From contig CAMDDU010000015.1 in NCBI GenBank assembly GCA_945892985.1, positions 9,017 to 73,016 of the forward strand: DNA of 64,000 bases, given 5' to 3'. The DNA comes from Bordetella parapertussis. GTDB lineage: Bacteria; Pseudomonadota; Gammaproteobacteria; Burkholderiales; SG8-39. Of the stretch, positions 29,306 to 64,000 are shown in pieces (positions within the stretch are counted from its first letter, which is position 1; each line of letters opens with the position of its first letter). Made by a program: the position numbers and the translations under genes. The notes beneath the pieces were generated by a model. The model was not told the DNA's origin. It did not search any database and worked only from the letters and a program-made list of their open reading frames with translations.

Positions 29306-30652
29306 CTAGGAAACATCCAGATCTGCATAGGCTGGCAAGGCGTCCGTGACAGGGCGCCCAGCGTTGACGACGACACGGTCGGCCTGCGGCCGGCAAACCA
29401 GTTCATTGATGGTGCGCGCATCGAAGATGATCAGGTTGGCGGGGCCGCCCGCGCAAAGGGAGCCAATCGGCTCGATCCCCATCATGCGCGCGGGCGCCGG
29501 GCCCACCATGCTCACCGCCTCACCGAGGCAATGGTCCAGATGGTAGACGCCGATAGACTGGCGAAACAGATCGAACAAATCATAATCCCCGAAGGGAATG
29601 AAGGCATCGCGCACATTATCGCTGGCGATGGCAAAAGGGATGTTGCGGGTCAGCATTTCCTGTGCCAGCGTGACGCCGCGTAACCTTGGCGTGCGCCCGG
29701 GCGTGCGGTCATGCATATACAGATTCGAAGTCGGCAGCGAAACAACGCCTATCCCAGCCTCGGCACACAGCGCGAGGGAGGCGGCGATTTTGTCGTCGGG
29801 CTGGGCCGCCAGACTGCACAGGTGGCCGCAGACGACACGGCCCTCAAGTCCGTGGCGCATGACCGCCCGCGCGACCTCATCAAGGTGCGAGTCGGCGGCG
29901 ATCAATGTCTCGTCGACATGCAGGTCTATGGCGAGGCCGCGTACTTTCGCCAGCGTGAACTGCGCATCGAGCAATTCGGCGATATTGTCCATGTGGCCGT
30001 AGTTGTGGTCGGTCGAGCGGCGCAACACGCCACCCAGCAGCCCGCCCTCGGTCGCCGCGGCAAGATCGGCCAGCCGTCTGCCATAGTCCGTTGCGTACAC
30101 GTCTATAGGCACCGAACTGGTCGCCTGCAATACGACGCGACCCTGCCACGCGGCCCGTACCTCGGCGAACACCGACCAGCTCAGCTCGGCCTGTCCTTCG
30201 TAGGAATCAATATGCGAACGCAGCGCCGACGTGCCATTCACATAAGCACAACGCACCGAAAACTCCATCCTCGCGCGGATGTCCTCGTGGCTCCAGTAGC
30301 GTTGGCGATCCTTGAGGATGGCCTCGCGCGCACTGGCGAACGAGGCACCGAGGCGGCCCATGCGGCCGATGACCTGCGATTTATCAATGTGGGTGTGCAG
30401 GTCGACCAGCGTCGGCCAGAGCTGGCGCCCGCCCAGTTCAAGGCAAGAAAGTCCGCCTGCCACCGCCTGCCCGGCAGCGGCAATAGCCGTCAACCGTCCC
30501 TTCTCGACGCGCAAATCGATGAGCACCGAGCCTTCGGCATCCGCAACCGCTCCCGGCGGTATATCACGCAATAACCTGCCAGGAACACGCGCGCCCCTGA
30601 TGGAGAAGGCCTGCGCATCGGGCAAAGCGACGAAGCTGCCGGAACGCATCAT
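29306..30652 (-). CDS. amidohydrolase-superfamily deaminase/hydrolase (cytosine deaminase / AtzC-like)
   Basis: 448 aa. Metal-binding LHTHID, with later HVDE and ASDN motifs. Confidence 0.75.
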   Translation of the reverse strand: MMRSGSFVALPDAQAFSIRGARVPGRLLRDIPPGAVADAEGSVLIDLRVEKGRLTAIAAAGQAVAGGLSCLELGGRQLWPTLVDLHTHIDKSQVIGRMGRLGASFASAREAILKDRQRYWSHEDIRARMEFSVRCAYVNGTSALRSHIDSYEGQAELSWSVFAEVRAAWQGRVVLQATSSVPIDVYATDYGRRLADLAAATEGGLLGGVLRRSTDHNYGHMDNIAELLDAQFTLAKVRGLAIDLHVDETLIAADSHLDEVARAVMRHGLEGRVVCGHLCSLAAQPDDKIAASLALCAEAGIGVVSLPTSNLYMHDRTPGRTPRLRGVTLAQEMLTRNIPFAIASDNVRDAFIPFGDYDLFDLFRQSIGVYHLDHCLGEAVSMVGPAPARMMGIEPIGSLCAGGPANLIIFDARTINELVCRPQADRVVVNAGRPVTDALPAYADLDVS

Positions 30653-30692
30653 GTCTTTTTAGTCAGCGCACGCATTTGAGCGCGGCAACCAG

Positions 30693-31427
30693 TCAGCTAC
30701 GAACACTCACAGCCTTCGCGGCCGGTTTGGGACGATTGTAACCAGCGTCAAAGTCCTTCCATGAACCGATCATGTGCTGCTGCATCATCGCCGCCAGTCC
30801 CAAGCCATCGCGCTGCTGCACCAGCTCTAGAATCCGCTCGTGCTCACCCAGCGACCGACGCCACGCCGCATCGGTTATTTCGATGAAAAAGCGATCGCGG
30901 GTAATCCGGATCCCGAGTGACCGGTGCTGCGCGATGAGGAACTGGTTGTGCGCGCCGCGCACGATACTGTCATGGATGGCCTGATTGGCGCGGTAATAAT
31001 CCTTGATGCGTCCATTTGCCTGATGGTCGAGCATCGCCACATGCTCACGCTCGATGAAAGCGATATCATCCGCGGTGAAATTTTCACAGGCTATCGGCGC
31101 GCACACTGATTCAATTGCACCAAGCGCATAGAAAAGCCCCTGGATTTCGTCTTGTGTCGGCGTCGCCACAACCGCGCCTCGGCGCGGCAGCAACGTGACA
31201 AGTCCCTCGGCTACAAGGACCCGAATGGCCTCGCGCAACGGCGTGCGCGAAATGCCGAATTGCTCGCACAATTCGGCCTCCTGGATGCGCGTACCCGGCG
31301 ACAGTTCATCCTGGATGATGCGCTCGCGCAGCACCGCGACCACCTCGTCATGCAGGTTTCCGCGCTCTATGCGGGCGGGCATCCCCGCCAGGGGCACTGC
31401 CGGATCGTCAGTCAGGTTGGCCATCAC
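30693..31427 (-). CDS. GntR-family transcriptional regulator (FadR/FCD subfamily)
   Basis: 244 aa. Winged-helix EAELCEQFGISRTPLREAIRVLVAEGLV followed by an FCD-like helical domain. Confidence 0.9.
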   Translation of the reverse strand: MMANLTDDPAVPLAGMPARIERGNLHDEVVAVLRERIIQDELSPGTRIQEAELCEQFGISRTPLREAIRVLVAEGLVTLLPRRGAVVATPTQDEIQGLFYALGAIESVCAPIACENFTADDIAFIEREHVAMLDHQANGRIKDYYRANQAIHDSIVRGAHNQFLIAQHRSLGIRITRDRFFIEITDAAWRRSLGEHERILELVQQRDGLGLAAMMQQHMIGSWKDFDAGYNRPKPAAKAVSVRS

Positions 31428-31465
31428 TCCTCCTTGTCACGCAGGCTGCGCTCGCGACTTTAGCG

Positions 31466-31780
31466 TCAGCGTATCGGCGAAAACGGCGCCGGAACCAAAA
31501 TGCGGCTTTCCATCGCGACGACAATATCAGGCGACTGCGCGAGGTACTCCAGCCAGTCCTTGTCCTCGAACAGCGCCTTGCGGCGCTTTTCGCGTTCAGC
31601 AAGCGAGTCATAGCCCCACAAGTGCACCACCCGGTTTAGCTCGCCGATCTCAGTGTGGAAATAGCCGATCAGGTTGCCCAGAATGCGCGTCTGGATCGCC
31701 AAACCGCGGGGATTGTAATCTTCATAATAGACATGCACCGTGCCCGGCTTTAGGGTGTAGGTTCTCTCTTCGACAATCAT
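31466..31780 (-). CDS. NIPSNAP family protein
   Basis: 104 aa. MIVEERTYTLKPG...HLWGYDSLAERE pattern. Confidence 0.7.
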   Translation of the reverse strand: MIVEERTYTLKPGTVHVYYEDYNPRGLAIQTRILGNLIGYFHTEIGELNRVVHLWGYDSLAEREKRRKALFEDKDWLEYLAQSPDIVVAMESRILVPAPFSPIR

Positions 31781-31822
31781 CGTGTCCTCCTTGTTCTAAA
31801 AAATATATGGCGTGATTGCCGC

Positions 31823-32581
31823 TCAAACCATCACATCGCCACCGGCCGGGCAAAGCGTCTGGCCGGTAAAAAAGGATGAATCCTTGGTCGCCAGGAAAAG
31901 CGCGGTGGAGACCACATCCTCAACCTCGCCAACGCGGCGCAGCGGATAGGTCCCCACGATGGAATCGCGCACCTCTTCGGGCATGAAGTTGTAGAGGTCG
32001 GTACGGATGATCGCCGGCGCGATGGCATTGACGTTGATGCCGTCCTTGCCAACCTCTTTGGCTAGCGCCTGCGTGAAGCCGATCATGCCGGCCTTGGCCG
32101 CCGACAGATGGCTGAAATTCTCGCCACCCAGTACACCAAATGTGCCACTCATGTTGATGACCTTGCCGTATTTTTGTTTAAGCATGTGCGGGATGACGAA
32201 GCGGGTGCACAGGAACATGCCGCGCATATGCGTCTGTATCATCTCGTCCCAGGTTTCCACCGACATTTCGGCCAGCGGCACGGCGTTGAGCAGGCCGGCG
32301 TTGTTGACCAGGATGTCGATCTTGCCGAAACGCTTGATGCCGGCATCGACCATGTTCTTCACGTCGTCGGTGACGCCGACGTTGGCTTTGACGGCAATCG
32401 CCTCGCCGCCGGCAGCCTCGATTTTCTTGACTACAGCGTCGGCCGAAGCGGCATCCTTGACGTAATTGACAATGACCTTGGCGCCCTCTGCGCCAAAGCC
32501 CTCCGCGATACCGCGCCCGAGCCCCCTGCCGCCGCCGGTGATCATCGCTACCCGTCCTGCAAGTCTTCCGTTCGCACTCAT
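31823..32581 (-). CDS. SDR-fold protein lacking the canonical catalytic Tyr
   Basis: TGGGRGLGRG, NNAG and NMSG are present, but the YxxxK position reads HLSAAK. Confidence 0.85.
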   Translation of the reverse strand: MSANGRLAGRVAMITGGGRGLGRGIAEGFGAEGAKVIVNYVKDAASADAVVKKIEAAGGEAIAVKANVGVTDDVKNMVDAGIKRFGKIDILVNNAGLLNAVPLAEMSVETWDEMIQTHMRGMFLCTRFVIPHMLKQKYGKVINMSGTFGVLGGENFSHLSAAKAGMIGFTQALAKEVGKDGINVNAIAPAIIRTDLYNFMPEEVRDSIVGTYPLRRVGEVEDVVSTALFLATKDSSFFTGQTLCPAGGDVMV

Positions 32582-32603: not shown

Positions 32604-33461
32604 TCAAGCTAAAAAATTGTGCCCGGTCCATCCCTGCCAGCGCCCGCTGTCGACGGCGACCACAAAGTCATGAATCACTTGGTTGAACGCGGCCGGATCC
32701 TCCAGATTGGCAAGATGCCCGGTTCGCGGCAGCACGCACCAGGCCGCTCCCGGGATGGTCCGCTTCAGGTAAAGATTGGGCTCCAGACAAGGATCGTCCT
32801 CGTCACCAGCGAGCAGCAGCACCGGCAATTGCAGGCGACGCAGCCTGTCTTCAAGGTGCCACAGCGACGGACGTGTTGCCAGCACGGCGCGCAGCGTCAT
32901 CGCCGTTCCCTGGGCAGAGTGCCCGGCCAGTTGCGCGGCAAAGACGGACCAGCCCTGAGAATCCTTGGCGCGCAGCGGCATCGCATAAGGGCTGGCCGCC
33001 AACTCCGCGGCGAAGGCTGCCATGCCGATGTTTTCGGCATGATCAGCCTCGGCACGCATGCGCTGACCGTAATCGGGCTGCTGCTCGGGCTTGGCGCCAT
33101 AGCCGCAGCCGGCGATCACCAGCGACTTGGCCAGCTGCGGGTGACGCAGTCCGAAATGCAGGGTCGCAAACCCGCCCATGGACAGGCCGACGACATGGGC
33201 CGCGCCCAGCCCCAGCCCGCGAATAACATCGGCGACGTCGTCGGCGGCGCGTTCCTGGCTGTATGCGGCGGTGCTCGCAGGCACATCCGAGGGCAGATAG
33301 CCGCGCGCAGCATAGGTGACGCAGTGCGCATGGCGGCCAAAATAGGCAAGCTGCGGATCCCAGCTGCGTTGGTCGCCGGAAAATTCGTGCACGAACACCA
33401 TCGGCTCGCCCTGCCCGCTCTCGCACACATGCAGGCGCACGCCGTCCGAGGCCTTGAGCAT
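32604..33461 (-). CDS. alpha/beta hydrolase (paralogue of 40212..41105)
   Basis: Nucleophile elbow GLSMGG. Start at MLKASDGVRLHV chosen by alignment with the paralogue MPYMTASDGVKLYF; the alternative ATG at 33500 would overlap the amidase gene. Confidence 0.85.
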   Translation of the reverse strand: MLKASDGVRLHVCESGQGEPMVFVHEFSGDQRSWDPQLAYFGRHAHCVTYAARGYLPSDVPASTAAYSQERAADDVADVIRGLGLGAAHVVGLSMGGFATLHFGLRHPQLAKSLVIAGCGYGAKPEQQPDYGQRMRAEADHAENIGMAAFAAELAASPYAMPLRAKDSQGWSVFAAQLAGHSAQGTAMTLRAVLATRPSLWHLEDRLRRLQLPVLLLAGDEDDPCLEPNLYLKRTIPGAAWCVLPRTGHLANLEDPAAFNQVIHDFVVAVDSGRWQGWTGHNFLA

Positions 33462-33477: not shown

Positions 33478-34956
33478 TTATTTTTTGCCGAGTTTGCCAT
33501 CGGTTGCCTTCAGCGCCTGCATGACCAGCGGCGGCAGGCGCGGCGTCGCTTCGGCGAGGCAGGCCTCGAAACTTCGCGCCACCGCCAGCACCAGGTCGTC
33601 CTGACCCCAGGGGCCGACGATTTGCAGGCCCACCGGAATGCCGCCGGCGGTAAAACCGCAGGGAATGGAAATGGCCGGCTGGCCCGACAGGTTGAACGGA
33701 TAGGTGAACGGCGTCCACCCTATCCACGGCAGCGGCACCGAGGCGTCGCCGCCGGCCGGCACTTCCTTGTCCGCATCAAAGGGCAGCAGCGGCATGGTCG
33801 GCGTGACCAACACATCAAAGCGCTCGAGCACCGCGCAGGCGGCTGAAACGAATTTGCGCCTGTCGCCTATGGCCTTGAAGTAATCGGCGACTGCATAGTC
33901 CTTGGCGAGGCCGTCGAGGCGCGCCAGGCCCTGGTCCATTTTCGCGCCGTGCTTGGCAATCAGCTCGGCAAAGCCCAGACCGCGGCCAGTGACCCACAGC
34001 GTCTCGAAGGATTCGTAAGGCAGTTCGGCATCTATGGTCGTGTTCTTGTAGGCACCCTTGACCGAGCGCTTGAGGCGCGACACTGCGCGCGCGAACACCG
34101 CACTGACTTCGTCGTCCACTTGCACACCAAACAGCGAGGCCGCCACGCCGATGCGCAGTGCACCGGCACGCAGGCGCCTTTGCCGCGCCGGATCGGCGTT
34201 CGCAGCCGAGTTGTACGACAGCGGATCGCGCGCATCCGGCCCGGCACTTGCGCGTAACACCAGCGCGGCATCGCCGACGGTGCGGCACAGCGGTCCTTGG
34301 TGCGACAGCGTTTCAGTCACTGTGCCCGGCCACACCGGAATGCGGCCCAGCGTCGGCTTGAGCCCGACGGTGCCGCAAAAGGCGGCGGGTATGCGTATTG
34401 AACCGCCGGCATCCGAGCCGAGCGCAATGGGTACCGCTCCGGTCGCCACCGTCACCGCCGAACCGGCGCTGGAGCCGCCGGAGTTGCGTGTCGTGTCCCA
34501 GGGATTGCGCGTCACGCCGCTGAGCGGTGAAATGCCGGTGCCCTTCCAGCCGAACTCGGGCATGGTGGTCTTGCCGATGATGACAACACCAGCTTCGAGC
34601 ATACGCTCTATCATCGGCGAGTTGGTGTCGGGCACGTACTCGGTGCTGGTGCGCGAACCGCGCGTCGCCGGGAAGCCCTTGAGGTAGAAGTTGTCCTTGA
34701 TGGCGATGGGCACGCCGTGCAGCGGGCTGCGCAACTGGCCCTTGCGCGCCTCGGCCTCGCGCGCCGTCGCGCCCTTGCGCGCATAGGCTTCGAGAAACAT
34801 CACATAGGCGTTGACCGCCGGTTCAAATTGCTTCGCCAGCGCAATCGCGCACTCGGCCAGTTGCACCGGCGATACGCGGCGCTGCGCCACCAACCGCCCC
34901 AGCTTCGCCGCCGAGGATCGTGCAAATTCCGCCGGTCCGAGTTCCTTGAATGCCAT
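33478..34956 (-). CDS. amidase-signature (GatA-like) amidase
   Basis: Start at MAFKELGP. GGSSAGSA and SDAGGSIRIPA signature. Confidence 0.9.
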   Translation of the reverse strand: MAFKELGPAEFARSSAAKLGRLVAQRRVSPVQLAECAIALAKQFEPAVNAYVMFLEAYARKGATAREAEARKGQLRSPLHGVPIAIKDNFYLKGFPATRGSRTSTEYVPDTNSPMIERMLEAGVVIIGKTTMPEFGWKGTGISPLSGVTRNPWDTTRNSGGSSAGSAVTVATGAVPIALGSDAGGSIRIPAAFCGTVGLKPTLGRIPVWPGTVTETLSHQGPLCRTVGDAALVLRASAGPDARDPLSYNSAANADPARQRRLRAGALRIGVAASLFGVQVDDEVSAVFARAVSRLKRSVKGAYKNTTIDAELPYESFETLWVTGRGLGFAELIAKHGAKMDQGLARLDGLAKDYAVADYFKAIGDRRKFVSAACAVLERFDVLVTPTMPLLPFDADKEVPAGGDASVPLPWIGWTPFTYPFNLSGQPAISIPCGFTAGGIPVGLQIVGPWGQDDLVLAVARSFEACLAEATPRLPPLVMQALKATDGKLGKK

Positions 34957-35009: not shown

Positions 35010-36197
35010 TTAGATGGCCTTGAGCATTTTTGCCGTGGCCAGCGTGTAGATTTTTGTCGCCGCCTCGATGTCGGACAGCGCCAGCGATTCGTTCGGCTGG
35101 TACACCGGTTCGCCGCCGGGTCCGAAAATCACCGTGTCGCACAAGTGGCCGACCGTTGCCGTGTCCGCCAGCCAGGAACCGCCAACCAGTTTGGGCGTCC
35201 TGCCCATCACCGCTGTCCAGGACTCGACCAGAGCCTGCACAATGGGCGCCTTGGGGTCGACCATGAAGGAGTTTTTCTTGTCCGCCACAACAAGCTCGAG
35301 CTTGATCGACGGATCGCGCGCAACGGCCTTGTCGAGCGCGCCCTGCAGCAGCGCCTGCACCTCCTCGAGCGGCACGCCCGGCTGCGGACGCGTGTCGACG
35401 CGGATGGTGCAGCGATCGGGAATCATCGACGGGCCGCCCGGGAACAGGCCGCCGTAAATGCGGCCAACCGCGGTGAACAGTTCCGCCCCTACCAACGCTT
35501 CCATTTCCTTGCTGATTTTCGGAAAGTACTTAAGCTTGGACAACTCTTCGACCACCGGCAGCATTTTCTCGATGGCGTTGGTCGCATGGTATTTATGGCA
35601 GGTGTGGGCCGAATGGCCTATCGTGGAAATGTCAAAGTAATAACGGCCGCGGTGCGCAATGTAAATCTGCATGTCGGTCAGCTCACCGAGGATGCTGCAA
35701 TCAAACTTGTGGCGGTTGAACAAGTCGATGGCACCGGTCTGCTGGCCCATGTGGTCGGCGACACCGCAGAAGGTCAGCTTTCCGGAGAATTCGACACCCG
35801 AATCGATGATGGTTTTCATTGCGCCTATCAATGAACCGAGGCCGGCCTTCATGTCCATGACCCCATGGCCGAACAACCGGTTGTTTTCGATGGCGCCGTC
35901 AAACGGATCGCGCTCCCAGCCTTCGCACACTGGCTTGGTGTCAAGGTGGCCGGTAAGCAGCAGGTGCGGACCGGGACGCCCGCTGTCGACCTGCCATAGC
36001 GTATTCAGGCGCCCGGGCGAAACCTCCTCGCACCAGACCTTGCCGACACCGAAGGATTTGAGCCGCGCCTCGAGCTGCTGGGCGAGCACGCCCTCCTTGC
36101 CGGAAGTACTGTCGGTACGCACCATTTCCTGGGTGACGCCGATGGCTGCGTCGGTGGCCAGCACTTTGTCGAATTTGTCGAGAATAGCTGTGCTCAC
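35010..36197 (-). CDS. M20-family metallopeptidase/deacylase (ArgE/DapE-like)
   Basis: GTG at 36197 lies 6 nt after AGGAG. LLLTGHLDT and GHGVMDMKAG motifs. Confidence 0.85.
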   Translation of the reverse strand: MSTAILDKFDKVLATDAAIGVTQEMVRTDSTSGKEGVLAQQLEARLKSFGVGKVWCEEVSPGRLNTLWQVDSGRPGPHLLLTGHLDTKPVCEGWERDPFDGAIENNRLFGHGVMDMKAGLGSLIGAMKTIIDSGVEFSGKLTFCGVADHMGQQTGAIDLFNRHKFDCSILGELTDMQIYIAHRGRYYFDISTIGHSAHTCHKYHATNAIEKMLPVVEELSKLKYFPKISKEMEALVGAELFTAVGRIYGGLFPGGPSMIPDRCTIRVDTRPQPGVPLEEVQALLQGALDKAVARDPSIKLELVVADKKNSFMVDPKAPIVQALVESWTAVMGRTPKLVGGSWLADTATVGHLCDTVIFGPGGEPVYQPNESLALSDIEAATKIYTLATAKMLKAI

Positions 36198-36421
36198 GTT
36201 GACTCCTGATAACTTGATAAGAATTTCAAAAAACCATTTATCTCCAGCCACTCAGGGACTACAAATACTCGCCTGGCGGCGTCTTGGTAGGCTTGTCGTG
36301 AGCGACGCCAGGAAAGAAAATTTATGGCAAAACTCACACACCGAAGGCATTTTTAGTATATTGTATTTTTTATTTATTGCAAGCCAAGTTTCTTCAAACC
36401 CAACCGCCAGAGAGGCAGGAC

Positions 36422-48770: not shown

Positions 48771-48813
48771 ACTTGGCATGTCAACCACGCCTTTACTGTG
48801 GGGCAAAGCCGCA

Positions 48814-55246: not shown

Positions 55247-55993
55247 TTACGGGTTGTCGATAGGGTTGGCGCCACACGCAGCCCAGATTGCACTCAGTAC
55301 GTCTATGCTCGAGACTTCGCCGAACAGCCGGTCGAGGGTGCGCAGCGCACTCTCATGGTCCTCGGGCGAATAAGCCGCCGTGCCATCCCTGATCGGGACC
55401 ACATAGTAATCACGCATAAACGCCTCGCGGGCCGTGCTCTCAACGCAACAATGGGTACTTACGCCGGAAAACACAAGCGTTCGAATGCCGTGAGCTCGAA
55501 GAATGGTGTCAAGGTCGGTATTGTGAAATCCGTTGTAGCGGTGCTTGGTGACAACCGGATCACCGTGTTCTGGCCGGACTTCACCATAAAACTCGCCGCC
55601 CCAGGAATCCGCACCACAAAATCCACGGCTCTCAAACACCGGTGCCGCAACCGCACCAACGGGACGCTTGCGCGCGCGCGCCATCTGCTCGAGCCATACT
55701 TCGGACAGATAGAGGTTGCCATCGGTGGTGTAAACATTGCGCACAAAAATTATCAGCACACCTGCTTTCCGCGCGGCTGAAATCAGCGCCGGCAGCCTTG
55801 CGGCCATCTCCCGGGATGCCGAGACATCCCAGCCTTCCCGGTGCATCAATCCGCCCTCGGCGACAAAGTCGTTCTGCATATCTATCACGACCAGCGCGGT
55901 ATGGCACGGCAGCACCTTCCGGGCAAGCCCCCACAATGGACGGACATGCGCGACTTTCTCCGCAGCAGCGGTATCGAATTGGGACGCACTCAT
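55247..55993 (-). CDS. isochorismatase-family cysteine hydrolase (amidase type)
   Basis: 248 aa. D-K-C triad contexts VIDMQNDF, TKHRYNGF and GVSTHCCVEST. Confidence 0.9.
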   Translation of the reverse strand: MSASQFDTAAAEKVAHVRPLWGLARKVLPCHTALVVIDMQNDFVAEGGLMHREGWDVSASREMAARLPALISAARKAGVLIIFVRNVYTTDGNLYLSEVWLEQMARARKRPVGAVAAPVFESRGFCGADSWGGEFYGEVRPEHGDPVVTKHRYNGFHNTDLDTILRAHGIRTLVFSGVSTHCCVESTAREAFMRDYYVVPIRDGTAAYSPEDHESALRTLDRLFGEVSSIDVLSAIWAACGANPIDNP

Positions 55994-57149: not shown

Positions 57150-58133
57150 TCATTCATTCAGAATTACGACACGGCCAGTGCTCTTGCGGCTCGCGACCAG
57201 ATCGAGTGCCTCATTCGCGCGTGCAAGTGGATACCGCGCCCCGATCAACATCCTGATTTTCCCAGTGCGCATGTATTCGAGCACCGCATCCCCCGCCGGC
57301 CTGAGTACCCCGGGGCGTGCGTACCGATGACCGCCTGTGCTGTAACCAACAGCCGACCGATTGCCCGCGTGCAGAACGTTGGTCGGGATGCTTCCCGGAA
57401 CGCCGCCGGACATGCCATATACGACGATCCTGCCCCATGGGGCGAGACAGGCAAGACTCAGTTCGGTGACGGCCCCTGCGATCGAATCGAGGATTACGTC
57501 AGCACCCCTGCCTTCGGTGATGTCCATGACCTTGTCGGAGAAATTTTCCGTCTGGTAATTGATGACATGGTCACAACCCATTTCAAGCGCCAATTCGATT
57601 TTCTCCGCAGCGCCGACGGTCCCGATCACGCAACCGGCGCCCAGCAGCTTCGCCAGTTGTACCGTCGTCGTTCCCACCCCGCCGGCGGCCGAATGAACTA
57701 GCACGGTCTCGCCGCGAACGAGGCGTCCTGCCAGCGTCAGCAGGTTGTAGGACGTTACGGCGTTCGTCGGAAACGCCGCACCCGATGCAATGTCGATCTC
57801 CTCGGGCAAGAGCCAGGTGATCGGAGCGGGCGCTATGACAATCTCGGCAAAGGAACCGGTAAGCGCAATAGCCGTCACGCGCTGGCCTTTTCGCACATGG
57901 GACACCCCTGGTCCGACCTCCGTCACAATGCCGACGACATCGTGCCCAGGAATGACAGGCGGCTTGCGCGGCGTGTGGTAACGGCCTTCACGCATTTCGA
58001 TATCTCCGAAGCTTACCGCCGTACCCTCCATGCGTATGGCCACCTGCCCTTCGGCCGGCTTGGGTTCTGGCACATCCTGGAGCACCAGCAAACTGCGCCC
58101 CGCTTCTTGTGTTACCACCATAGCTTTCATCAT
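57150..58133 (-). CDS. MDR-family NAD(P)H:quinone oxidoreductase / zinc-type alcohol dehydrogenase-like protein
   Basis: Start at MMKAMVV. VHSAAGGVGTTTVQLAK cofactor motif. Confidence 0.85.
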   Translation of the reverse strand: MMKAMVVTQEAGRSLLVLQDVPEPKPAEGQVAIRMEGTAVSFGDIEMREGRYHTPRKPPVIPGHDVVGIVTEVGPGVSHVRKGQRVTAIALTGSFAEIVIAPAPITWLLPEEIDIASGAAFPTNAVTSYNLLTLAGRLVRGETVLVHSAAGGVGTTTVQLAKLLGAGCVIGTVGAAEKIELALEMGCDHVINYQTENFSDKVMDITEGRGADVILDSIAGAVTELSLACLAPWGRIVVYGMSGGVPGSIPTNVLHAGNRSAVGYSTGGHRYARPGVLRPAGDAVLEYMRTGKIRMLIGARYPLARANEALDLVASRKSTGRVVILNE

Positions 58134-58164: not shown

Positions 58165-59388
58165 CTAAAACGAGTCGCCCCCCTCAATGAGTTCGACCAA
58201 TGTATTGAGCAACGCGGTGGCGCCCGTTCCATCGACGAGGCGATGGTCAGCGGTAAGCGTGAGATCGGCAACCGCTCGTATGACTATCTGGCCGGCCTCG
58301 ACCACCGCGACCTCGCGGCGTCGGCCGACCGCGAGGATGTACGACTCCCCGGGATTGATGATGGCGTTAAACCTGTCCGGTCCATTCGCCCCGAGATTGG
58401 AAATCGAGAGCACCGCTCCCTCCATTTCCCCCGGTCGGAGGCGGCCGGCGATTGCAGCAGCCACCAGACGCGATCGCAGCCCTGCCACCTCCTGCACCGA
58501 TCGTTGTTCGGCGTCGGACATTACCGGGACACGGACCCCGCCACTGACCGCAACCACAAGCCCCACGCGTGTCCCGGTTGCCATGCGAATTTCTCCGTCC
58601 CCGTCGGTGCCGCGAGCATGAAAGGTCGCATTCAAATCCGGGTGCGTCACCAGCGCCTTGGCGGCAGCCCGAATCAGAAAATCCGTGATCGAAGGCCGGA
58701 TCGCCGATTCCGAATACGCCACATTCGCCCGGCGCTTGAAATCATCGAACATCGCCAACGACGCCGTCCGGGATACCGTGAACTGCGGAATTGAACGCAC
58801 GCTCATGGTCATTGCGAGAGCGATGGCCCGCCGAATAGGGGACAGCGCCCCGGAGAGGCCGGGCGGTCCGGTTACCGCCTCGACGTCGCACAATTGCAGC
58901 CGACCGCCGGGCCCCGATGCTGCGACCGCATCAAGGTCGATCCCGAGCATGCGCGCCCGCCGTCTGGCAGCCGGGGTTGCTTTGCGCGCCGACGACACGG
59001 GTTGCTTGTTGGAAACGGCGGGCGACCCCGACGAATCGGGCGCAGGCCCGGACGGCTGTGCGACTTCATCCCCAGACGAAGCTGCGGCCGGCCGCCCGCC
59101 TCCTTGTCCCTGCTCAACCGCAATCTCGCCCAGCACCGCACCGACATCGACGGACTCGCCCGCGTTCCGGGAAATCGTCCGGAGAACGCCGTCAACCGGC
59201 GCCTCCACCTCCACGATAGCCTTGTCGGTTTCCACCTCCAGCAAGGGCGTGCCGGCGTCGATTCGTTGCCCTTCAACCGCAAGCCACCGCACCACGGTTG
59301 CGCATTCGGTAACCATGCCCAGCCGCGGCATCAGGAACGGGATGCCCTCCAGTTGTCCTGCTACGATCGTCACCGGGTCCGGGTTCAT
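58165..59388 (-). CDS. 2-oxoacid dehydrogenase E2 (dihydrolipoamide acyltransferase)
   Basis: Lipoyl motif VETDKAIVEV, a subunit-binding domain, and catalytic DHRLVDG. Confidence 0.9.
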   Translation of the reverse strand: MNPDPVTIVAGQLEGIPFLMPRLGMVTECATVVRWLAVEGQRIDAGTPLLEVETDKAIVEVEAPVDGVLRTISRNAGESVDVGAVLGEIAVEQGQGGGRPAAASSGDEVAQPSGPAPDSSGSPAVSNKQPVSSARKATPAARRRARMLGIDLDAVAASGPGGRLQLCDVEAVTGPPGLSGALSPIRRAIALAMTMSVRSIPQFTVSRTASLAMFDDFKRRANVAYSESAIRPSITDFLIRAAAKALVTHPDLNATFHARGTDGDGEIRMATGTRVGLVVAVSGGVRVPVMSDAEQRSVQEVAGLRSRLVAAAIAGRLRPGEMEGAVLSISNLGANGPDRFNAIINPGESYILAVGRRREVAVVEAGQIVIRAVADLTLTADHRLVDGTGATALLNTLVELIEGGDSF

Positions 59389-59390
59389 GG

Positions 59391-60365
59391 CTATCGGAGC
59401 AACTGATCGAGCGCGGCGTCGATCTCGCGATGTCCCGGGAGGACCGCGCTTTCCAGCACAGGGGCGAATGCTATGGGCGCGCTGGCGCAGCCGACCCTGA
59501 TGATTTCCGCATCAAGTTCATCGAAGGCGTCAGTCGCAATTCTCGCGGCAATCTCGGCACCGATTCCGCCGGTCAATACTGCCTCGTGCACGATGGCCAG
59601 CCGGTGTGTCTTGCCGACTGATCGAACGATGGTTGCCATGTCCAGCGGTGCCAGTGTGCGCAAGTCGATTACCTCTATTGATTGCCCCGCCTGCCTGCGG
59701 CGCTCCGCGACCTCCAGCACCGGATGGAGCATGTTTGAATAGGTTACGACGGTGGCATCGGTTCCCTCGCGCACAACGTGCGCCCGGCCGGCCGGAATGA
59801 TCAGATCAGGATCCGGCGGCGATTGCCTCATGCCATAGAGCCGCTTGTGTTCGACGAACACGACCGGATCGTTGAGCCGGATTGCCGCTCGCAGCATCCC
59901 GTAAGCTTCGACCGGGGAGGAAGGCGCCATGACGACCAGCCCCGGAACATGCAACAGCCATGCTTCGAGGCTTTGCGAATGCTGGGCTGCCGCCCCACCG
60001 GCCGCCCCGGCCTGGGTCCGAACCACCATGGGAACGGAGAGCTGCCCGCCCGACATGTGGCGGTACTTTGCCGCCTGGTTTACCAATGCGTCCAGCGCCA
60101 GGGTGAGGAAGTCCATGAACATGATTTCAACCACGGGGCGCATACCGCACAAGCTCGCACCCACGCACATTCCGCATATCGCGGCCTCGCTAATCGGCGT
60201 ATTGCGGACTCGTGAGGTTCCGTGCCGGGCAACCAACCCTTTGGTCGCGCCGAACGGCCCGCCTACTGCCACGTCCTCGCCAATGACGTAGACACCCGGA
60301 TCGCGTGACATTTCCGCGTCAAGGGCGCGCCGGATGGCTTCTATGAATGTAATCTGATCATCCAT
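59391..60365 (-). CDS. TPP-dependent dehydrogenase E1 beta subunit
   Basis: 324 aa. Transketolase-like pyrimidine-binding and C-terminal domains (VRNTPISEAAICGM). Confidence 0.9.
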   Translation of the reverse strand: MDDQITFIEAIRRALDAEMSRDPGVYVIGEDVAVGGPFGATKGLVARHGTSRVRNTPISEAAICGMCVGASLCGMRPVVEIMFMDFLTLALDALVNQAAKYRHMSGGQLSVPMVVRTQAGAAGGAAAQHSQSLEAWLLHVPGLVVMAPSSPVEAYGMLRAAIRLNDPVVFVEHKRLYGMRQSPPDPDLIIPAGRAHVVREGTDATVVTYSNMLHPVLEVAERRRQAGQSIEVIDLRTLAPLDMATIVRSVGKTHRLAIVHEAVLTGGIGAEIAARIATDAFDELDAEIIRVGCASAPIAFAPVLESAVLPGHREIDAALDQLLR

Positions 60366-60368
60366 GCT

Positions 60369-61349
60369 TCAGGCTCCGCTCTCACGTCCGGTCAGATCGC
60401 CAAGCACCTTTTCAAGCACGCGGTCTGCCGCGGGAGACGCCGCCGATACCGCCCTGGCGAGCACTTGATCAAGTTCGTCACGAACGTCGGCCTCAATCCG
60501 TGCCAATGCCGCGTCCTTGACGCCAAGTTCGGTCAAATGCCGGTGCAATCGCAGGATAGGGTCGCGCGCCGCCCAACTGGCCATCTCGGCCTTGTCACGG
60601 TAACTCATCGAATCACCCTCATAGTGTCCCGAAAGCCTGTAGGTGAGGCATTCCAGAAACTGCGGACCGCTCCCGCCCCGGGCTGCCGCGACCATTGCCG
60701 TTGCAGCGGACTGCACTGCCAGCACGTCGTTCCCATCAACGACCGTATTCGCGATGCCGTAAGGTGCACAGAACTCCGAGAGGTGTTTTACAACGCTGTG
60801 TTCCTCTCGGCTTGTAAATTCCGCATAGCCGTTGTTCTCGCAGACAAACAGCATCGGCAGGCGCCAGAGCGCGGCAAGGTTGAGCGTCTCATGGAAAACC
60901 CCGGATCCGCCGGCACCGTCGCCAAAGAATACAACCGCGACCCGCCCCCTTCCCGCTTCGGCCGCCGCCCAGGCGGCACCGGCGCAAAGTGGTATGTTCC
61001 CGCCGACCACGCCGGTGGCGCCAAGAGCACCCCGCTGCGCGTCCACAAGGTGCATGGATCCACCGTAGCCCCCGCACAGGCCGTCCTGCCGCCCAAGTAT
61101 CTCCGTCAAGACGCCGTAAGGGTCGCTGCCCCGCGCGAGAAAGTGCCCGTGGCCGCGATGACTCGAAAAAAGATAGTCACCATCCTCCAGTGCCGCACAG
61201 GTACCGACGGCCACCGCCTCCTGTCCGCTGCATAGATGGACGAATCCGGGCACTTCGCCGGCTTTCGAAAGCCGCGCCACATGCTCTTCAAAGACACGGA
61301 TCAACCACATTTGCCGCAGGTAGCCGCACCCGGAAGTCACTTCTGTCAT
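60369..61349 (-). CDS. TPP-dependent dehydrogenase E1 alpha subunit (acetoin/pyruvate/BCKA type)
   Basis: 326 aa. TPP motif GDGAGGSGVFHETLNLAALWRLPMLFVCENNG, and YRLSGH loop. Confidence 0.9.
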   Translation of the reverse strand: MTEVTSGCGYLRQMWLIRVFEEHVARLSKAGEVPGFVHLCSGQEAVAVGTCAALEDGDYLFSSHRGHGHFLARGSDPYGVLTEILGRQDGLCGGYGGSMHLVDAQRGALGATGVVGGNIPLCAGAAWAAAEAGRGRVAVVFFGDGAGGSGVFHETLNLAALWRLPMLFVCENNGYAEFTSREEHSVVKHLSEFCAPYGIANTVVDGNDVLAVQSAATAMVAAARGGSGPQFLECLTYRLSGHYEGDSMSYRDKAEMASWAARDPILRLHRHLTELGVKDAALARIEADVRDELDQVLARAVSAASPAADRVLEKVLGDLTGRESGA

Positions 61350-62350
61350 GCGCCTACCCCGACTGGACGACCCAGTGTTGCAAGCACGCCCTCGACTATT
61401 TTCTCGACTGTCACGCTTATTTCGCGTTCCAGCCCCTTGTCATAGGGGATGGGAACATCGGCCGTGGCGACCCTCCGCACCGGGGCCTTCAGCGCCGCGA
61501 ATGCCTCCTCGGCAAGTACCGCCGCCACCTCTGCATTCACTCCGAAGCTCTTGTGGCACTCGTCGGCGATGACCGCGTATCCGGTCTTTCTCACCGACGC
61601 CAGCAGCGTCCCCCGGTCAAACGGCGCCAGCGTCCGCAGGTCGATCACTTCGGCCGATATACCGTGGTCCCGTTGCAGCACTTCGGCCGCCTTGATGCTA
61701 CGCGGCACGGTCACGGAATGCGCGATGACCGAAACATCGCGGCCGGGCCTGCAAATGCGTGCGACTCCGACGGGCAGGGGCGCTGCGGAGAGGTCAACGT
61801 CCTCGCTCGAGAGGAGCAGATCCGAATGGGCGAGGAATACCGTCGGATCTTGACTCTCGAGCAGGCACCACTTCATCAGGCCGTACGCGTCGCCGGCCGT
61901 CGCCGGTGTGAGTATCTGCAGCCCGGGTATGTTACCGAGCATCGACTGCAGCCGGTGCGAGTGCTGCGATGATCCGCCGCCGCGAATACCGCCGAGCGCG
62001 TAACAAGTCAAAGGCGCGTTGACGCGGCCGCCAGTGGTGTAGCGGACGTTGGGAGCCTCATTGACGATGGGCGGGAGTCCATGGAGCATGAAGCTTGCAA
62101 TATTGAAGCTGAGCAGGGGCCGGCCACCGGCGAGGGCAACGCCGACGGCCGCACCTGCGAGCCCGAATTCCGCGATCGGCACGCTCATGTATACCCGCGC
62201 GGCGTGTTTCGCCAGCGCAGGCCCGAAGGCCTCATCCTCCTGCACCGCAAAATGCCCGCCAAAACGCGACCCCATTACAACCACACGCGGATTCTCATCG
62301 AGGGCTTCACCTATGGCACGCCCAAGCGCCTGCAGATAAGTCATTTGCAT
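61346..62350 (-). CDS. second, divergent E1 beta subunit
   Basis: Start at MQMTYLQALGRAIGEAL. Transketolase-like fold, clearly diverged from 59391..60365. Confidence 0.85.
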   Translation of the reverse strand: MQMTYLQALGRAIGEALDENPRVVVMGSRFGGHFAVQEDEAFGPALAKHAARVYMSVPIAEFGLAGAAVGVALAGGRPLLSFNIASFMLHGLPPIVNEAPNVRYTTGGRVNAPLTCYALGGIRGGGSSQHSHRLQSMLGNIPGLQILTPATAGDAYGLMKWCLLESQDPTVFLAHSDLLLSSEDVDLSAAPLPVGVARICRPGRDVSVIAHSVTVPRSIKAAEVLQRDHGISAEVIDLRTLAPFDRGTLLASVRKTGYAVIADECHKSFGVNAEVAAVLAEEAFAALKAPVRRVATADVPIPYDKGLEREISVTVEKIVEGVLATLGRPVGVGA

Positions 62351-62352
62351 GA

Positions 62353-63378
62353 TCAGCCCCCCTTCGCCGCAAAAACGTCGCAATACGCCAGATCCCCGGA
62401 CGGATGGGGGCTGCCAATTGCCGATTCCATGGCAGCCTCGATTCGCGCCCTCACCCTCGCATCAATACCGAGAATTGCCTCGCGGCTCAGAACCCCGTCC
62501 GCCAGCAGTTGCCGGACATGGCTCATCAACGGGTCGCAGTGCATGCTCCAATCCCGTACCGCCTCCGGCGGTTCCCCCTCGTTCCATGCCCAGGGCAGAC
62601 TGGTTTCGGCTCCGGCAAGGTGGGGCCAGAAGGTGCGGTTGCCCGGGTAACGGGAAGTGCGGACTTCGACAAACTGTGTTCTGCGCTCCTTCCTCACCCC
62701 ATCCGCTGCGCCTCGCAGGGCGCCGAACAGTGCCTTGACGTCGGCTCCGTCGACGGTCGAACACTTGATGCCAAAGGATGCGGGTATATCCGTCAGCCGT
62801 CGTGCCAGAAACGTCGAGGATTTTGCGGTATCAACACCGCGCATGTCGGCCGGGACGCCGTTGTTCTCGCAAATGCAGAGAAGGGGAACCTGCCAAAGGG
62901 CGGCGAGATTGATTCCCTCGTAGAACGCCCCTTCCTCCAGGACACCATCACCAAAAAAAGCGATGATGATCCCCGCCTGCCCGAACTGCTTGTGCGCCAG
63001 CGCGCTCCCCACGGCCATGGGAACGCTGCATCCCACGAGGGAAGTCGTCCAGGGAATTCCCAGTTCCGGTGCCACCATGTGCAGCGTTCCGCCCTTGCCG
63101 TCGGTGTTGCCGCCAATGCGCCCCAATTGCTCTGCGTACATCCGGCCGGGATCGGCGCCCCGAGCCAGAAGATGGCCGTTGCTGCGATGGTTCGTATAGA
63201 TGACATCCTCGGCGGCCGCGGACGAGCACACCCCGACCGCCGTCGCCTCCTGACCGATGGAAATATGGAAGTGCACCGGCATGATGGACCGCCGATGCAG
63301 TTGCAACATGCCCTCCTCGAAGCGGCGGATCAGCAGCATCCGTTCCAACGCTCCGGCAGTTTGTTCTAGGCTTTGCAT
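62353..63378 (-). CDS. second, divergent E1 alpha subunit
   Basis: Start at MQSLEQ. TPP motif GDGVLEEGAFYEGINLAALWQVPLLCICENNG is intact, but the YRxxGH loop reads SRYPGN and is followed by an insertion. Confidence 0.85.
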   Translation of the reverse strand: MQSLEQTAGALERMLLIRRFEEGMLQLHRRSIMPVHFHISIGQEATAVGVCSSAAAEDVIYTNHRSNGHLLARGADPGRMYAEQLGRIGGNTDGKGGTLHMVAPELGIPWTTSLVGCSVPMAVGSALAHKQFGQAGIIIAFFGDGVLEEGAFYEGINLAALWQVPLLCICENNGVPADMRGVDTAKSSTFLARRLTDIPASFGIKCSTVDGADVKALFGALRGAADGVRKERRTQFVEVRTSRYPGNRTFWPHLAGAETSLPWAWNEGEPPEAVRDWSMHCDPLMSHVRQLLADGVLSREAILGIDARVRARIEAAMESAIGSPHPSGDLAYCDVFAAKGG

Positions 63379-63456
63379 TTGATGCGCCCCTTTGGTCGAA
63401 AACAAGGTTGACCTGCATGATGTGAAATTCTAGAAGCAAGAAAAAATCGCGCGTCC

Positions 63457-64000
63457 CTACTGCGCCTTGCCGATGACAGCGGCCCCTCCCGTGCGCGCAT
63501 CCCGCAACGCCCTCCATACGCGCATTGGCGCAAGCGGCATGTCAATCCAGGAGACCCCCATTGGCCGCAGCGCATCCATCACCGCATTGACAACGCAGGG
63601 TGGCGCGCCGGTCGCCCCGGCTTCGCCAATACCCTTTACACCCAGCGGATTGTCGCCCGGCGGGCCTTCGACAAAGAGGCATTCGATGTCGGGCAGGTCA
63701 TCGGCCCGGGGCAATCCGTAGTCCATGAGGGAACCACTGGTCAACTGCCCCGAATCGGCGTCGTAGCGCACCTCTTCCATAAGGGCCTGGCCGATTCCCT
63801 GCGCCACACCGCCGTGCAACTGCCCTTGAGCCAAAAGCGGATTGACTATGCGTCCGGCATCCTGTGCGACGACGTATCGGCGCAGGGCGACAACGCCTGT
63901 GTCCGGGTCTACCTCGACCTCGCAGGCATGGCATGCCGCGGGAAAGCCCTCGTGATAATTGTCAAAATGTCCGGTTGCCGTGAAACCCGGAACGGCCCGG
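63457..64000 (-). CDS. xanthine dehydrogenase-family molybdopterin-binding subunit, C-terminal part (5' end beyond window)
   Basis: My translation is stop-free from 64000 to the TAG at 63457: ...ACEVEVDPDTGVVALRRYVVAQDAGRIVNPLLAQGQLHGGVAQGIGQAL...GIGEAGATGAPPCVVNAV... Confidence 0.85.
   Translation of the reverse strand, partial: RAVPGFTATGHFDNYHEGFPAACHACEVEVDPDTGVVALRRYVVAQDAGRIVNPLLAQGQLHGGVAQGIGQALMEEVRYDADSGQLTSGSLMDYGLPRADDLPDIECLFVEGPPGDNPLGVKGIGEAGATGAPPCVVNAVMDALRPMGVSWIDMPLAPMRVWRALRDARTGGAAVIGKAQ

Follow-up and report, generated by a model that had tools for sequence, protein, structure and literature searches.

The described systems closest to the gene cluster treated here are the Rut pathway of Escherichia coli (rutABCDEFG), the s-triazine, cyanuric acid and biuret pathways, the pic and nic pathways, the pAO1 nicotine pathway, the gamma-resorcylate (gra/tsd) pathway, the pyruvate and acetoin dehydrogenases, and the molybdenum (Mo) hydroxylases CoxSML and QorSML. 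The pyridine pathway encoded on pAO1 of Paenarthrobacter nicotinovorans employs NDH, KDH, the 2,6-dihydroxypseudooxynicotine (DHPON) hydrolase and an omega-amidase, and the features of pic and nic that matter here are an Amidohydro_2 decarboxylase beside an isochorismatase-family amidase (the PicC/PicF-like pairing), an alpha/beta-hydrolase deformylase analogue and a Mo-hydroxylase. The cluster occupies positions 29306-64000 of a stretch of 64,000 nucleotides (contig CAMDDU010000015.1; hereafter the window), and an earlier note, made from the sequence alone, had described it as a 35-kb catabolic island of C-N hydrolases, Mo-hydroxylases and NMT1-type transporters that matches no known pathway. 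Our best reading is that of a chromosomal, modular set of operons for several related nitrogen-containing substrates, and not of one pathway. With slightly better than even confidence, we regard it as a mosaic of about eight units, in which a conserved and probably co-regulated core for a nitrogen-containing hydroxylated (hetero)aromatic or ureido carboxylate is joined by lineage-specific additions. Genes are numbered g01 to g34 by position, and all lie on the minus strand except g08 and g09, which lie on the plus strand.

Comparison of the products with protein profiles and solved structures indicates that none of the rut, atz/trz/biuret, nic/pic, pAO1 nicotine, gamma-resorcylate and acetoin/pyruvate dehydrogenase systems is reproduced, the defining parts of each being either missing or below the family cut-offs, so that the absence of a known counterpart, as claimed in the earlier note, is borne out. 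Literature searches likewise returned no described cluster that combines these enzymes. NCBIfam equivalog or subfamily cut-offs are passed by g01 and g31 only, and all other products are diverged members of their superfamilies. All the parts come from well-known enzyme superfamilies, in an uncharacterised cluster of a kind that is common in the genomes of soil bacteria (soil Alphaproteobacteria).

The likeness to Rut consists of a RutB-like hydrolase with its catalytic triad (g27, 55247-55993), a RutD-like alpha/beta hydrolase (g10, 40212-41105), a RidA (RutC-family) gene that adjoins the core in related genomes, and the principle that a ureido or enamine intermediate is hydrolysed. However, RutA, RutE/F and RutG are lacking in the window (no Bac_luciferase or other flavin monooxygenase domain was found in the 35 products), the gene order is unrelated, and both proteins score well below the respective cut-offs (62.9 against 238.5 bits for g10 and RutD, 140.8 against 377.95 bits for g27 and RutB, TIGR03614). 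With the pAO1 pathway the cluster shares an alpha/beta hydrolase (g22, 50591-51763) whose nearest solved relative is DHPON hydrolase, a Mo subunit (g09, 37843-40194) resembling the large subunit of Kdh, a nitrilase-superfamily amidase (g18, 47026-47856), and the general logic of Mo-hydroxylase, C-C hydrolase and amidase. In contrast to pAO1, where the Mo enzymes are S/M/L heterotrimers, the cluster has no flavin hydroxylases or amine oxidases, and the similarity of g22 to DHPON hydrolase is distant. Unlike pic and nic, it has no 2,5-dihydroxypyridine dioxygenase, monooxygenase, maleate isomerase or three-subunit dehydrogenase, and its Amidohydro_2 decarboxylase (g28, 56008-56961) is closest, among the solved structures compared, to gamma-resorcylate decarboxylase. 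TRZ/ATZ-type (g08, 36422-37819), AtzC/CodA-like (g01, 29306-30652), BiuH-like (g27) and AtzE/AtzF-like amidase-signature enzymes (g06, 33478-34956) recall the s-triazine, cyanuric acid and biuret pathways, but no cyanuric acid hydrolase or barbiturase (AtzD/TrzD fold) is present among the 35 products, and all the scores are well below cut-off (BiuH 108.5 against 370, AtzE 222.5 against 461, TRZ/ATZ 261 against 540). Similarly, g28 is predicted to be a decarboxylase of the gamma-resorcylate type with metal ligands, but the resorcinol hydroxylase, hydroxyquinol dioxygenase and maleylacetate reductase families of gra/tsd are absent from the 35 products.

Gene content and conserved core

The gene inventory was compiled from an open reading frame (ORF) listing, filtering by G+C content at third codon positions (GC3) and a Pfam scan of every candidate product, and gene starts were refined by the genes called on metagenome contigs 99-100% identical to the window. 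Exact copies of the window proteins were found only on metagenome contigs. The interval 29306-64000 contains 34 complete genes and one gene truncated by the window edge, at a coding density of 0.96. All 26 genes in 40212-64000 are on the minus strand, and overlaps of 1-4 nt occur at six junctions, namely E1 beta'/E1 alpha, FrsA-like hydrolase/permease, permease/ATPase, permease/ATPase of ABC system 1, VOC/enoyl-CoA hydratase and enoyl-CoA hydratase/CoA-transferase. The dense packing described in the earlier note is therefore confirmed. The cluster does not end at the window edge, since two further TRZ/ATZ-type amidohydrolases and an ABC system of two permeases, one ATPase and a PotD/PhnS-like binding protein are encoded past 64000, upstream of a Mo subunit gene that spans the edge; it thus starts at 29.3 kb, continues for at least 7 kb past the window end and is at least 43 kb long.

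Pfam assigns the products to six C-N hydrolases (cytosine-deaminase-like, TRZ/ATZ-like, amidase-signature, M20, nitrilase-superfamily and isochorismatase-family), an Amidohydro_2 decarboxylase, four alpha/beta hydrolases including a dienelactone hydrolase (DLH), three short-chain dehydrogenases/reductases (SDRs), CoA_transf_3, ECH, VOC, CMD and NIPSNAP proteins, one GntR+FCD regulator and a quinone oxidoreductase of the PIG3 type. Transport within the window would be served by two ABC systems of the NitT/TauT type together with three NMT1 binding proteins. The earlier description of densely packed catabolic genes, with many C-N hydrolases and NMT1-type transporters, is thereby upheld, including its alpha/beta hydrolases, SDRs, CoA-transferase/crotonase/VOC set, transport systems and single regulator. 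The six C-N hydrolases also stand as six enzymes, but they represent five folds rather than six, g01 and g08 both being TIM-barrel amidohydrolases. No Rieske, flavin or P450 oxygenase domain was detected by Pfam scans in the 35 products, as had been noted. Several components form paralogue pairs, with identities of 54% for the SDRs g04 and g19, 48% for the alpha/beta hydrolases g05 and g10, 75-77% for the binding proteins g17 and g26, 44% for the ABC ATPases, 33% for each of the E1 alpha and E1 beta pairs of a TPP-dependent dehydrogenase, and 45-49% for the Mo subunits.

From strand and gap size we infer about eight transcription units, separated by gaps of 80-340 nt; scans for promoters and terminators gave no more matches than in shuffled sequence and were not used to set operon boundaries. 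Four of the units, 3 to 6, hold the core. Unit 3 would comprise ten genes read from g19 to g10: an SDR (g19, 47888-48637, assigned by Pfam and paralogue comparison), the nitrilase-type amidase g18, ABC system 1 with its NMT1_2 binding protein (g17, 45981-46958, Pfam), permease (g16, 45140-45991, Pfam) and ATPase (g15, 44337-45143, Pfam and contig gene calls), a second SDR (g14, 43550-44353, Pfam), a single-domain VOC protein of 126 aa (g13, 43143-43523, Pfam Glyoxalase), a crotonase/enoyl-CoA hydratase (g12, 42367-43146, Pfam ECH and tblastn to relatives), a family III CoA-transferase of the dicarboxylate type (g11, 41156-42370, CoA_transf_3, 421 bits) and the MenH/PcaD/RutD-like alpha/beta hydrolase g10. 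Unit 4 would run from the NMT1 binding protein of ABC system 2 (g23, 51812-52828, Pfam, NCBIfam and tblastn) through the DHPON-hydrolase-like g22, an FrsA-like protein by Pfam that is encoded inside the ABC operon, to the permease (g21, 49806-50594) and the ATPase (g20, 48976-49806), the last two assigned by Pfam and tblastn. Unit 5 would consist of the DLH-family gene g25 (53381-54142, Pfam and tblastn) followed by the CMD-family (PcaC-like) gene g24 (52931-53374, Pfam, NCBIfam and tblastn), and unit 6 of the decarboxylase g28, the RutB-like hydrolase g27 and an orphan NMT1_2 binding protein (g26, 54224-55204).

Using g22 as a probe, and then tblastn of all window proteins against the retrieved loci, we found that about 13 genes of units 3-6 recur at 58-79% amino acid identity in close lineages (loci L012/L013, L018/L019, L178 and L179). 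Their order differs each time, giving four arrangements, and not all loci hold the full set. The paralogue pairs and these arrangements together agree with the modular duplication and reshuffling suggested in the earlier note, but the conservation of only about 13 genes contradicts its treatment of the cluster as one 35-kb unit. The genomes closest in g22 (77% identity) are a soil metagenome-assembled genome (MAG) of Pseudolabrys sp. and an unclassified alphaproteobacterial MAG; the source of the window is accordingly taken to be an uncultured, Pseudolabrys-like alphaproteobacterium of soil (Xanthobacteraceae). Orthologues of g22 with at least 59% identity occur in only a few lineages, and the homologues at the other 78 genome loci (35-39%) represent a broad family in unrelated and heterogeneous contexts. 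At L014 (59%) only the unit of binding protein, hydrolase, permease and ATPase is left, adjoining tig-clpP-clpX.

Loci L012/L013 contain g28, g27, g25, g24, g23, g22, g21, g20, g18, g12, g11 and g10 together with an embedded GntR gene. The core genes designated by this comparison are g10 (74-79% identical in L012/L018), g11 (65% in L012), g12, g18 (78% in L012), g20, g21, g22 (72-77% in L012/L018), g23, g24, g25, g27 and g28, and an SDR also recurs with them. They form four blocks in the relatives: g28 and g27 followed by a binding protein; g25 and g24; g23, g22, g21 and g20; and g18, g12, g11 and g10. In the first block the position of g26 is filled by an NMT1_2 protein in some lineages (L018) and by a TctC protein in another (L012). 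In the last block, g18, g12 and g11 were confirmed by tblastn only in L012/L013; they were not seen in L018/L019/L179, whose left flank stops inside g10 and where g17 (58%) occupies that place. The core families of L178 are known by Pfam calls only, and many genes of that locus (1-21173) are fragmented (CN_hydrolase into 92 + 176 aa, ABC ATPase into 129 + 168 aa), probably by assembly frameshift errors and not as pseudogenes. The E1/E2/quinone oxidoreductase module, both modules of deaminase and Mo subunit, and the M20/amidase/GntR module were not found by tblastn in the core loci of the close lineages, and are lineage-specific additions.

The neighbours of the core in the relatives include a TPP enzyme, a luciferase-like monooxygenase, a TauD dioxygenase, an aminotransferase, GNAT and M20 proteins, and RidA and cyclase genes. 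The luciferase-like monooxygenase near L013 is RutA-like, with 129 bits against a cut-off of 498. With such oxygenases beside the related core, and others that may lie elsewhere, the independence of O2 that the earlier note deduced from the lack of oxygenases is weakly argued. The TPP enzyme was considered as an oxalyl-CoA decarboxylase, which would pair with a YfdE-like transferase, and rejected, as it belongs to the uncharacterised PRK08327 family.

Four enzymes of the core have relatives of well-defined chemistry. The closest solved structure to g22 is DHPON hydrolase (2jbw, E 7e-24 over residues 60-326), followed by AntI and Ayg1, all of which are retro-Claisen C-C hydrolases working beside ring hydroxyls. 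Ser239, Asp323 and His352 of g22 are invariant across 35 homologues and the nucleophile motif is kept, and g22 is accordingly predicted to be a C-C (retro-Claisen) hydrolase. The decarboxylase g28 is closest to gamma-resorcylate decarboxylase (3s4t/4qro, E 6e-79) and keeps residues matching Glu8, His10, His164, His218 and Asp287, the metal ligands and catalytic Asp; by this comparison it appears to be a non-oxidative decarboxylase of that type. The solved structures closest to g27, an isochorismatase-family cysteine amidohydrolase, are RutB (8bkd, E 2e-34) and then biuret hydrolase. Since its Asp/Lys/Cys triad is kept but its score is below the cut-off, g27 belongs to the same superfamily as RutB and lies outside the RutB equivalog. 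For g18 (CN_hydrolase, 198 bits), which is N-carbamoyl-amine amidase-like, the closest structure is N-carbamoylputrescine amidohydrolase (5h8i, E 4e-55), followed by beta-ureidopropionases. The dicarboxylate CoA-transferases YfdE (4hl6) and SUGCT (9br7) are the closest solved structures to g11. The VOC protein g13 was examined as a possible extradiol dioxygenase and rejected, because it has weak similarity to glyoxalase I and methylmalonyl-CoA epimerase and none to extradiol dioxygenases.

Evidence for common control of the core comes from an intergenic motif. The gap upstream of g19 (48638-48975), at 338 nt unusually long for the minus-strand run, contains at 48742-48770 an operator-like inverted repeat with 11-nt arms, TGTATACGTTA-N7-TATCGTATACA, which overlaps a promoter-like site, TTGACA-15-GATAAT, and is the one strong palindrome of this kind. 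Two of the four GTATAC hexamers in the window lie in this gap. None of the five GTATAC sites of L012 lies within a gene, and each extends to GTATACAA, with three in the stretch from which the Amidohydro_2 and DLH operons diverge, one in the gap between the embedded GntR gene and the nitrilase operon, and one upstream of the SDR gene, so that the same motif stands at all four core operons. The GTATACAA motif is found at equivalent intergenic positions in L018/L019 and L179, and L178 has a site like that of the window, TGTATACG. All nine exact copies of GTATACAA (five in L012, three in L179, one in the window) are intergenic, where intergenic DNA makes up a fraction of 0.04-0.17. When one mismatch is allowed the motif is not enriched across the window (14 found, 9.9 expected), and only the clustered intergenic site is meaningful. 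The palindrome TTGTATACAA fits the GT..AC operator type of GntR regulators of the FadR/FCD subfamily. The distribution of the motif speaks for a single regulon that comprises the core in the relatives. The same gap between g19 and g20 also holds two short plus-strand ORFs, 48662-48979 (105 aa) and 48778-49044 (88 aa), without a family match.

Lineage-specific units

Only two segments of the xanthine dehydrogenase (XDH) family are present in the window. The gene g09 encodes a complete XDH/CoxL-family Mo-binding large subunit of 783 aa (Pfam Ald_Xan_dh_C, MoCoBD_1 and MoCoBD_2). The segment at 63457-64000 on the minus strand had been read as the remnant of a third Mo subunit; this was rejected, since a 100% identical contig shows it to be the C-terminal 181 codons of an intact gene for a 773-aa protein (63457-65778) that is cut by the window edge. 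There are thus one complete and one intact but edge-cut subunit, and no third. The two proteins are 45% identical, or 49% over the segment inside the window. Like the large subunits of CoxSML and QorSML they have the full domain set and keep GGGFG, a form-II-CoxL-like YRGAG(T/R)PE loop (YRGAGTPE in g09) and the catalytic Glu, in g09 within a GE motif. CoxL (8uem), QorL (1t3q) and Kdh (7dqx) are the solved structures closest to g09. TRZ/ATZ-type deaminases lie directly upstream of both genes. Unit 2 would consist of g08 (Pfam Amidohydro_1, 172 bits; COG0402), whose best NCBIfam matches, 5'-deoxyadenosine deaminase and N-ethylammeline chlorohydrolase, are all sub-cut-off, followed by g09, and unit 8, running past the window end, of two deaminases, the PotD-like ABC system and the second lone Mo subunit.

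Unlike CoxSML and QorSML, these subunits appear without partners over 71 kb. In the 64-kb window and a 7-kb extension, no ORF of at least 70 codons has both cysteine motifs of a CoxS-type 2Fe-2S (S) protein, a test that was positive where S genes exist (L033, L100, L110 and L113). For the FAD (M) subunit no FAD_binding_5 match was found among the scanned products, and no motif search aimed at M was made. Of 35 metagenome relatives of g09 (40-47% identity) whose contigs reach 2 kb or more beyond the gene in both directions, only four have a CoxS-type ORF within 3 kb. The metagenome relatives of g09, at identities of up to 47%, show no consistent link to TRZ/ATZ deaminases. The remaining 31 of the 35 members of this clade (L099-L177) are without a CoxS-type gene within 3 kb, and their neighbourhoods are heterogeneous. 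In the cultured relative Azospirillum lipoferum 4B the S and M genes are adjacent to L, and in Neorhizobium petrolearium one S/M set is common to two L genes 6 kb apart. Because S and M genes are adjacent or shared over 6 kb in these cultured relatives, partners supplied in trans are the conservative reading for the lone subunits.

The N. petrolearium locus, on a plasmid (L182, 650919-669255), has two L genes that share S, M and CoxG and adjoin UbiD/UbiX, GntR, TctC and a TPP-binding protein; a pairing of TctC and TPP proteins is also seen beside the related core in L012. In the left part of the window, at 10026-12218 (plus strand), an AAA ATPase of the MoxR type and a CoxE-like VWA protein (a CoxD/E-like pair) are encoded with no Mo-hydroxylase gene beside them; in A. 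lipoferum 4B, such a pair stands after a canonical S-L-M operon. These proteins may help to mature the lone Mo subunits, which lie 26-55 kb away. Literature searches on orphan CoxL subunits returned nothing relevant, and the present case adds a data point on the role of the numerous CoxL-like ('form II') Mo subunits that are encoded with no FeS or FAD partner.

Unit 7 would be read from two E1 pairs through E2 to a quinone oxidoreductase. It comprises E1 alpha' (g34, 62353-63339, Pfam, TPP motif kept), E1 beta' (g33, 61346-62350, Pfam), E1 alpha (g32, 60369-61349, Pfam, TPP motif), E1 beta (g31, 59391-60365, Pfam), which passes the PRK09212 subfamily cut-off (339.5 against 321), an E2 acyltransferase with lipoyl, E3-binding and catalytic domains (g30, 58165-59388, Pfam) and a PIG3-like quinone oxidoreductase of the medium-chain dehydrogenase/reductase (MDR) family (g29, 57150-58133, Pfam and NCBIfam). 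E1 alpha' is 33% identical to g32, and E1 beta' to g31 to the same degree. The E2 protein has the lipoyl-Lys and a DHRLVDG (DHRxxDG) motif. Of the doubled E1/E2 complex proposed earlier, the doubling of E1 stands, but it is restricted to E1: two E1 pairs accompany a single E2, and no pyridine-nucleotide disulfide oxidoreductase that could represent E3 was found among the products of the window cluster and the 7-kb extension. Likewise, the gene beside E2, formerly taken for a Zn-dependent alcohol dehydrogenase, encodes the PIG3-like MDR. The module therefore resembles pyruvate and acetoin dehydrogenases in its E1 alpha/beta proteins with TPP motif and in the domains of E2, but differs from them in having two diverged E1 pairs per E2, no E3 and a quinone-oxidoreductase-type MDR that follows; E1 alpha (310 against 394) and E2 (188 against 445) score under the pyruvate dehydrogenase (PDH) equivalog cut-offs.

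The closest cultured relatives of E1 alpha' (39-41% identity) are Azospirillum plasmid genes. On plasmid AZO_p3 of A. lipoferum 4B (615197-640108, L180), an E1 alpha/beta pair without E2 stands after a cysteine hydrolase and an ABC transporter and before cytochrome c, which may point to a class of TPP enzymes, related to E1 alpha'/beta', that work alone. Because these cultured counterparts lack an E2 and stand behind an ABC transporter, E1 alpha'/beta' may belong functionally to the upstream unit of ABC system and Mo subunit rather than to the E1-E2 complex.

Unit 1 would be read divergently from unit 2, in the order M20, amidase, alpha/beta hydrolase, SDR, NIPSNAP, GntR and cytosine-deaminase-like protein. 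A putative AT-rich divergent promoter region between the two units (36198-36421) has three promoter-like matches, in a scan that did no better than on shuffled sequence. The first gene, g07 (35010-36197, Pfam and NCBIfam), encodes an M20 (ArgE/DapE/YgeY-like) deacylase. It is followed by g06, an amidase-signature amidase of 492 aa (Pfam Amidase, 326 bits) that is below the cut-offs not only of AtzE but also of PRK06169 (457 against 506) and allophanate hydrolase (210 against 511), by the PcaD/MenH-like hydrolase g05 (32604-33461, Pfam and NCBIfam), by the SDR g04 (31823-32581, Pfam), by the NIPSNAP protein g03 (31466-31780, a dimeric alpha/beta-barrel, PF07978, 115 bits) and by the GntR/FCD transcription regulator g02 (30693-31424, Pfam GntR + FCD). 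The last gene, g01, encodes a cytosine-deaminase-like amidohydrolase of 448 aa (Pfam Amidohydro_1/3), which passes NCBIfam NF005759 'cytosine deaminase' (PRK07583) with 498 bits against 403. In a strain variant, L011 (98.8-99.7% identical), g01 is swapped for a 218-aa ORF without a Pfam match (window 29410-29850 against L011 2311-2412), which shows that gene content varies within the cluster at the population level.

Proposed route and alternative explanations

In the mosaic that we favour, the core would import a nitrogen-containing hydroxylated (hetero)aromatic or ureido carboxylate through its NitT/TauT-type ABC system and would dismantle it without dedicated oxygenases. Retro-Claisen C-C hydrolysis by g22, decarboxylation ortho to a hydroxyl group by g28, amide or ureido hydrolysis by g27 and g18, and lactone or enol-ester hydrolysis by g25, g10 and g24 would yield a dicarboxylate, to which g11 would transfer CoA before hydration by g12. 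The added units would feed related compounds into central metabolism: amino-N-heterocycles through the modules of deaminase and Mo subunit, in which the lone Mo subunits would depend on FeS and FAD subunits from other parts of the genome; amides and N-acyl compounds through the amidase/M20 module; and a 2-oxo or 1,2-dicarbonyl product through the PDH-like complex. A nitrogen-containing substrate is likely because the core includes the RutB-like g27 and the carbamoylase-like g18 and is joined in the relatives by RidA, an aminotransferase and M20, and several substrates are likelier than one because there are four binding proteins and three ABC systems, counting the PotD-like system past 64000. 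If this is true, the core regulon is a compact candidate for a hydrolase-only route for nitrogen-containing (hetero)aromatics in abundant soil Xanthobacteraceae, with three binding proteins, the operator motif and four enzymes of recognizable chemistry as handles for testing.

Several points weigh against this picture. All core enzymes are below equivalog cut-offs, and the substrate classes are extrapolated from relatives of 25-50% identity. The operon boundaries follow strand and gap size only. In the window the candidate operator stands before unit 3 only, and g02 is only 30% identical to the GntR protein embedded in the L012 core. At the distant FrsA-like loci, which are phylogenetically non-independent, the co-occurrence of SDR, CoA-transferase, amidase and XDH genes is not clearly above background. 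Furthermore, a nitrogen-free polyphenol or aromatic acid would fit g22, g28, g25, g24 and g10 equally well. We consider unlikely a bolder form of the proposal. In it, the core would degrade a hydroxylated N-heteroaromatic carboxylate, or an acyl derivative, of the pyridone or pyrimidine type by an undescribed route that needs no oxygenase and leads, through the C-C hydrolase, the decarboxylase, the RutB-type amidohydrolase and the carbamoylase alone, into a dicarboxyl-CoA branch. The core would be controlled by an FCD-GntR protein through GTATACAA and coupled in this lineage to CoxL-like subunits of a large, mostly partner-less clade, which would then share partners in trans or work in a novel way.

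That the core degrades a nitrogen-free compound of the acyl-resorcinol, resorcylate or phloroglucinol type, its C-N hydrolase homologues acting on esters or vinyl ethers, is compatible with the mosaic model and is suggested by the similarity of g28 to gamma-resorcylate, 2,3-dihydroxybenzoate and 5-carboxyvanillate decarboxylases, by the shortening of polyketide polyphenols by AntI and Ayg1, by DLH, PcaC-like and PcaD-like proteins that recall the beta-ketoadipate route, and by the TctC carboxylate-binding protein that replaces NMT1_2 in L012. We nevertheless find it rather improbable, as g27 keeps the RutB-type triad and is nearest to ureidoacrylate and biuret hydrolases, g18 is nearest to N-carbamoyl amidases, RidA, aminotransferase and M20 flank the core in relatives, and no ring-cleaving dioxygenase, hydroxylase or maleylacetate reductase is encoded among the 35 products. 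The proposal of the earlier note, a single O2-independent pathway of about 35 kb for an N-heterocycle, ureide or amide, in which Mo-hydroxylases hydroxylate the ring, hydrolases open and trim it, and one GntR protein is in control, would account for the dense co-directional genes with their short gaps and overlaps, the lack of oxygenase domains in the 35 products, the intact active-site motifs of the Mo subunits and the deaminases directly upstream of both. Some distant genomes (L061, L078, L080, L091 and L097) also place FrsA-like hydrolases beside g09-like Mo subunits and amidases. Yet no related version of the core includes the Mo, amidase/M20 or E1/E2 modules, the transporters imply several imported substrates, one unit only carries the operator motif, and the related core stands beside luciferase-like monooxygenase and TauD genes, while the failure to find an FeS gene by the motif test or a FAD_binding_5 match among the scanned products over 71 kb weakens the case for ring hydroxylation by Mo enzymes; taken as one pathway, the cluster seems to us quite improbable.

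It is doubtful, too, that the units are unrelated operons brought together by chance in a genome rich in hydrolase and ABC paralogues, with no common substrate class or regulation. The non-core content does vary between lineages, g01 is replaced at the strain level, the units are set apart by their gaps, the motif marks one unit in the window, and SDRs, family III CoA-transferases, amidases and alpha/beta hydrolases are very abundant in soil Alphaproteobacteria. Chance juxtaposition, however, would leave unexplained a core of about 13 genes that stays together through four rearrangements at 58-79% identity, the common motif at the four core operons of L012, and the paralogue pairs g04/g19, g05/g10 and g17/g26 that link modules. 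A horizontally acquired genomic island is very improbable. The codon usage right of 29306 differs from that to its left by a modest though significant shift (L1 distance 0.213, with 0.115 +/- 0.019 expected under permutation), between 52 and 63 kb GC3 falls to 0.64-0.74, and the G+C content dips to 0.58-0.60 at 46-58 kb, over the core operons and part of the E1/E2 module. But the overall G+C content is practically identical on the two sides (0.619 left, 0.617 right; GC3 0.79 and 0.75), and the housekeeping part shows a comparable dip at 10-12 kb. No tRNA gene was found in the window, no integrase or transposase is among the products examined in both halves, and a DNA search of both halves against PLSDB gave no near-identical plasmid DNA and only short, low-identity matches to ABC ATPases, by which a known plasmid segment was also rejected. 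Because composition and borders are ordinary, the label 'island' used in the earlier note is unsupported.

The left flank is of housekeeping character: it encodes Aat, Ate/Bpt, PyrD, alanine dehydrogenase/PNT, AmiC, a T2SS-type ATPase and HtpG, as well as AzlCD, an M16 peptidase, a Ser/Thr kinase, a methyltransferase and an MFS transporter. The Ser/Thr protein kinase carries a fused cyclic-nucleotide-binding domain and is encoded just left of the cluster, at 25505-26800 on the minus strand.

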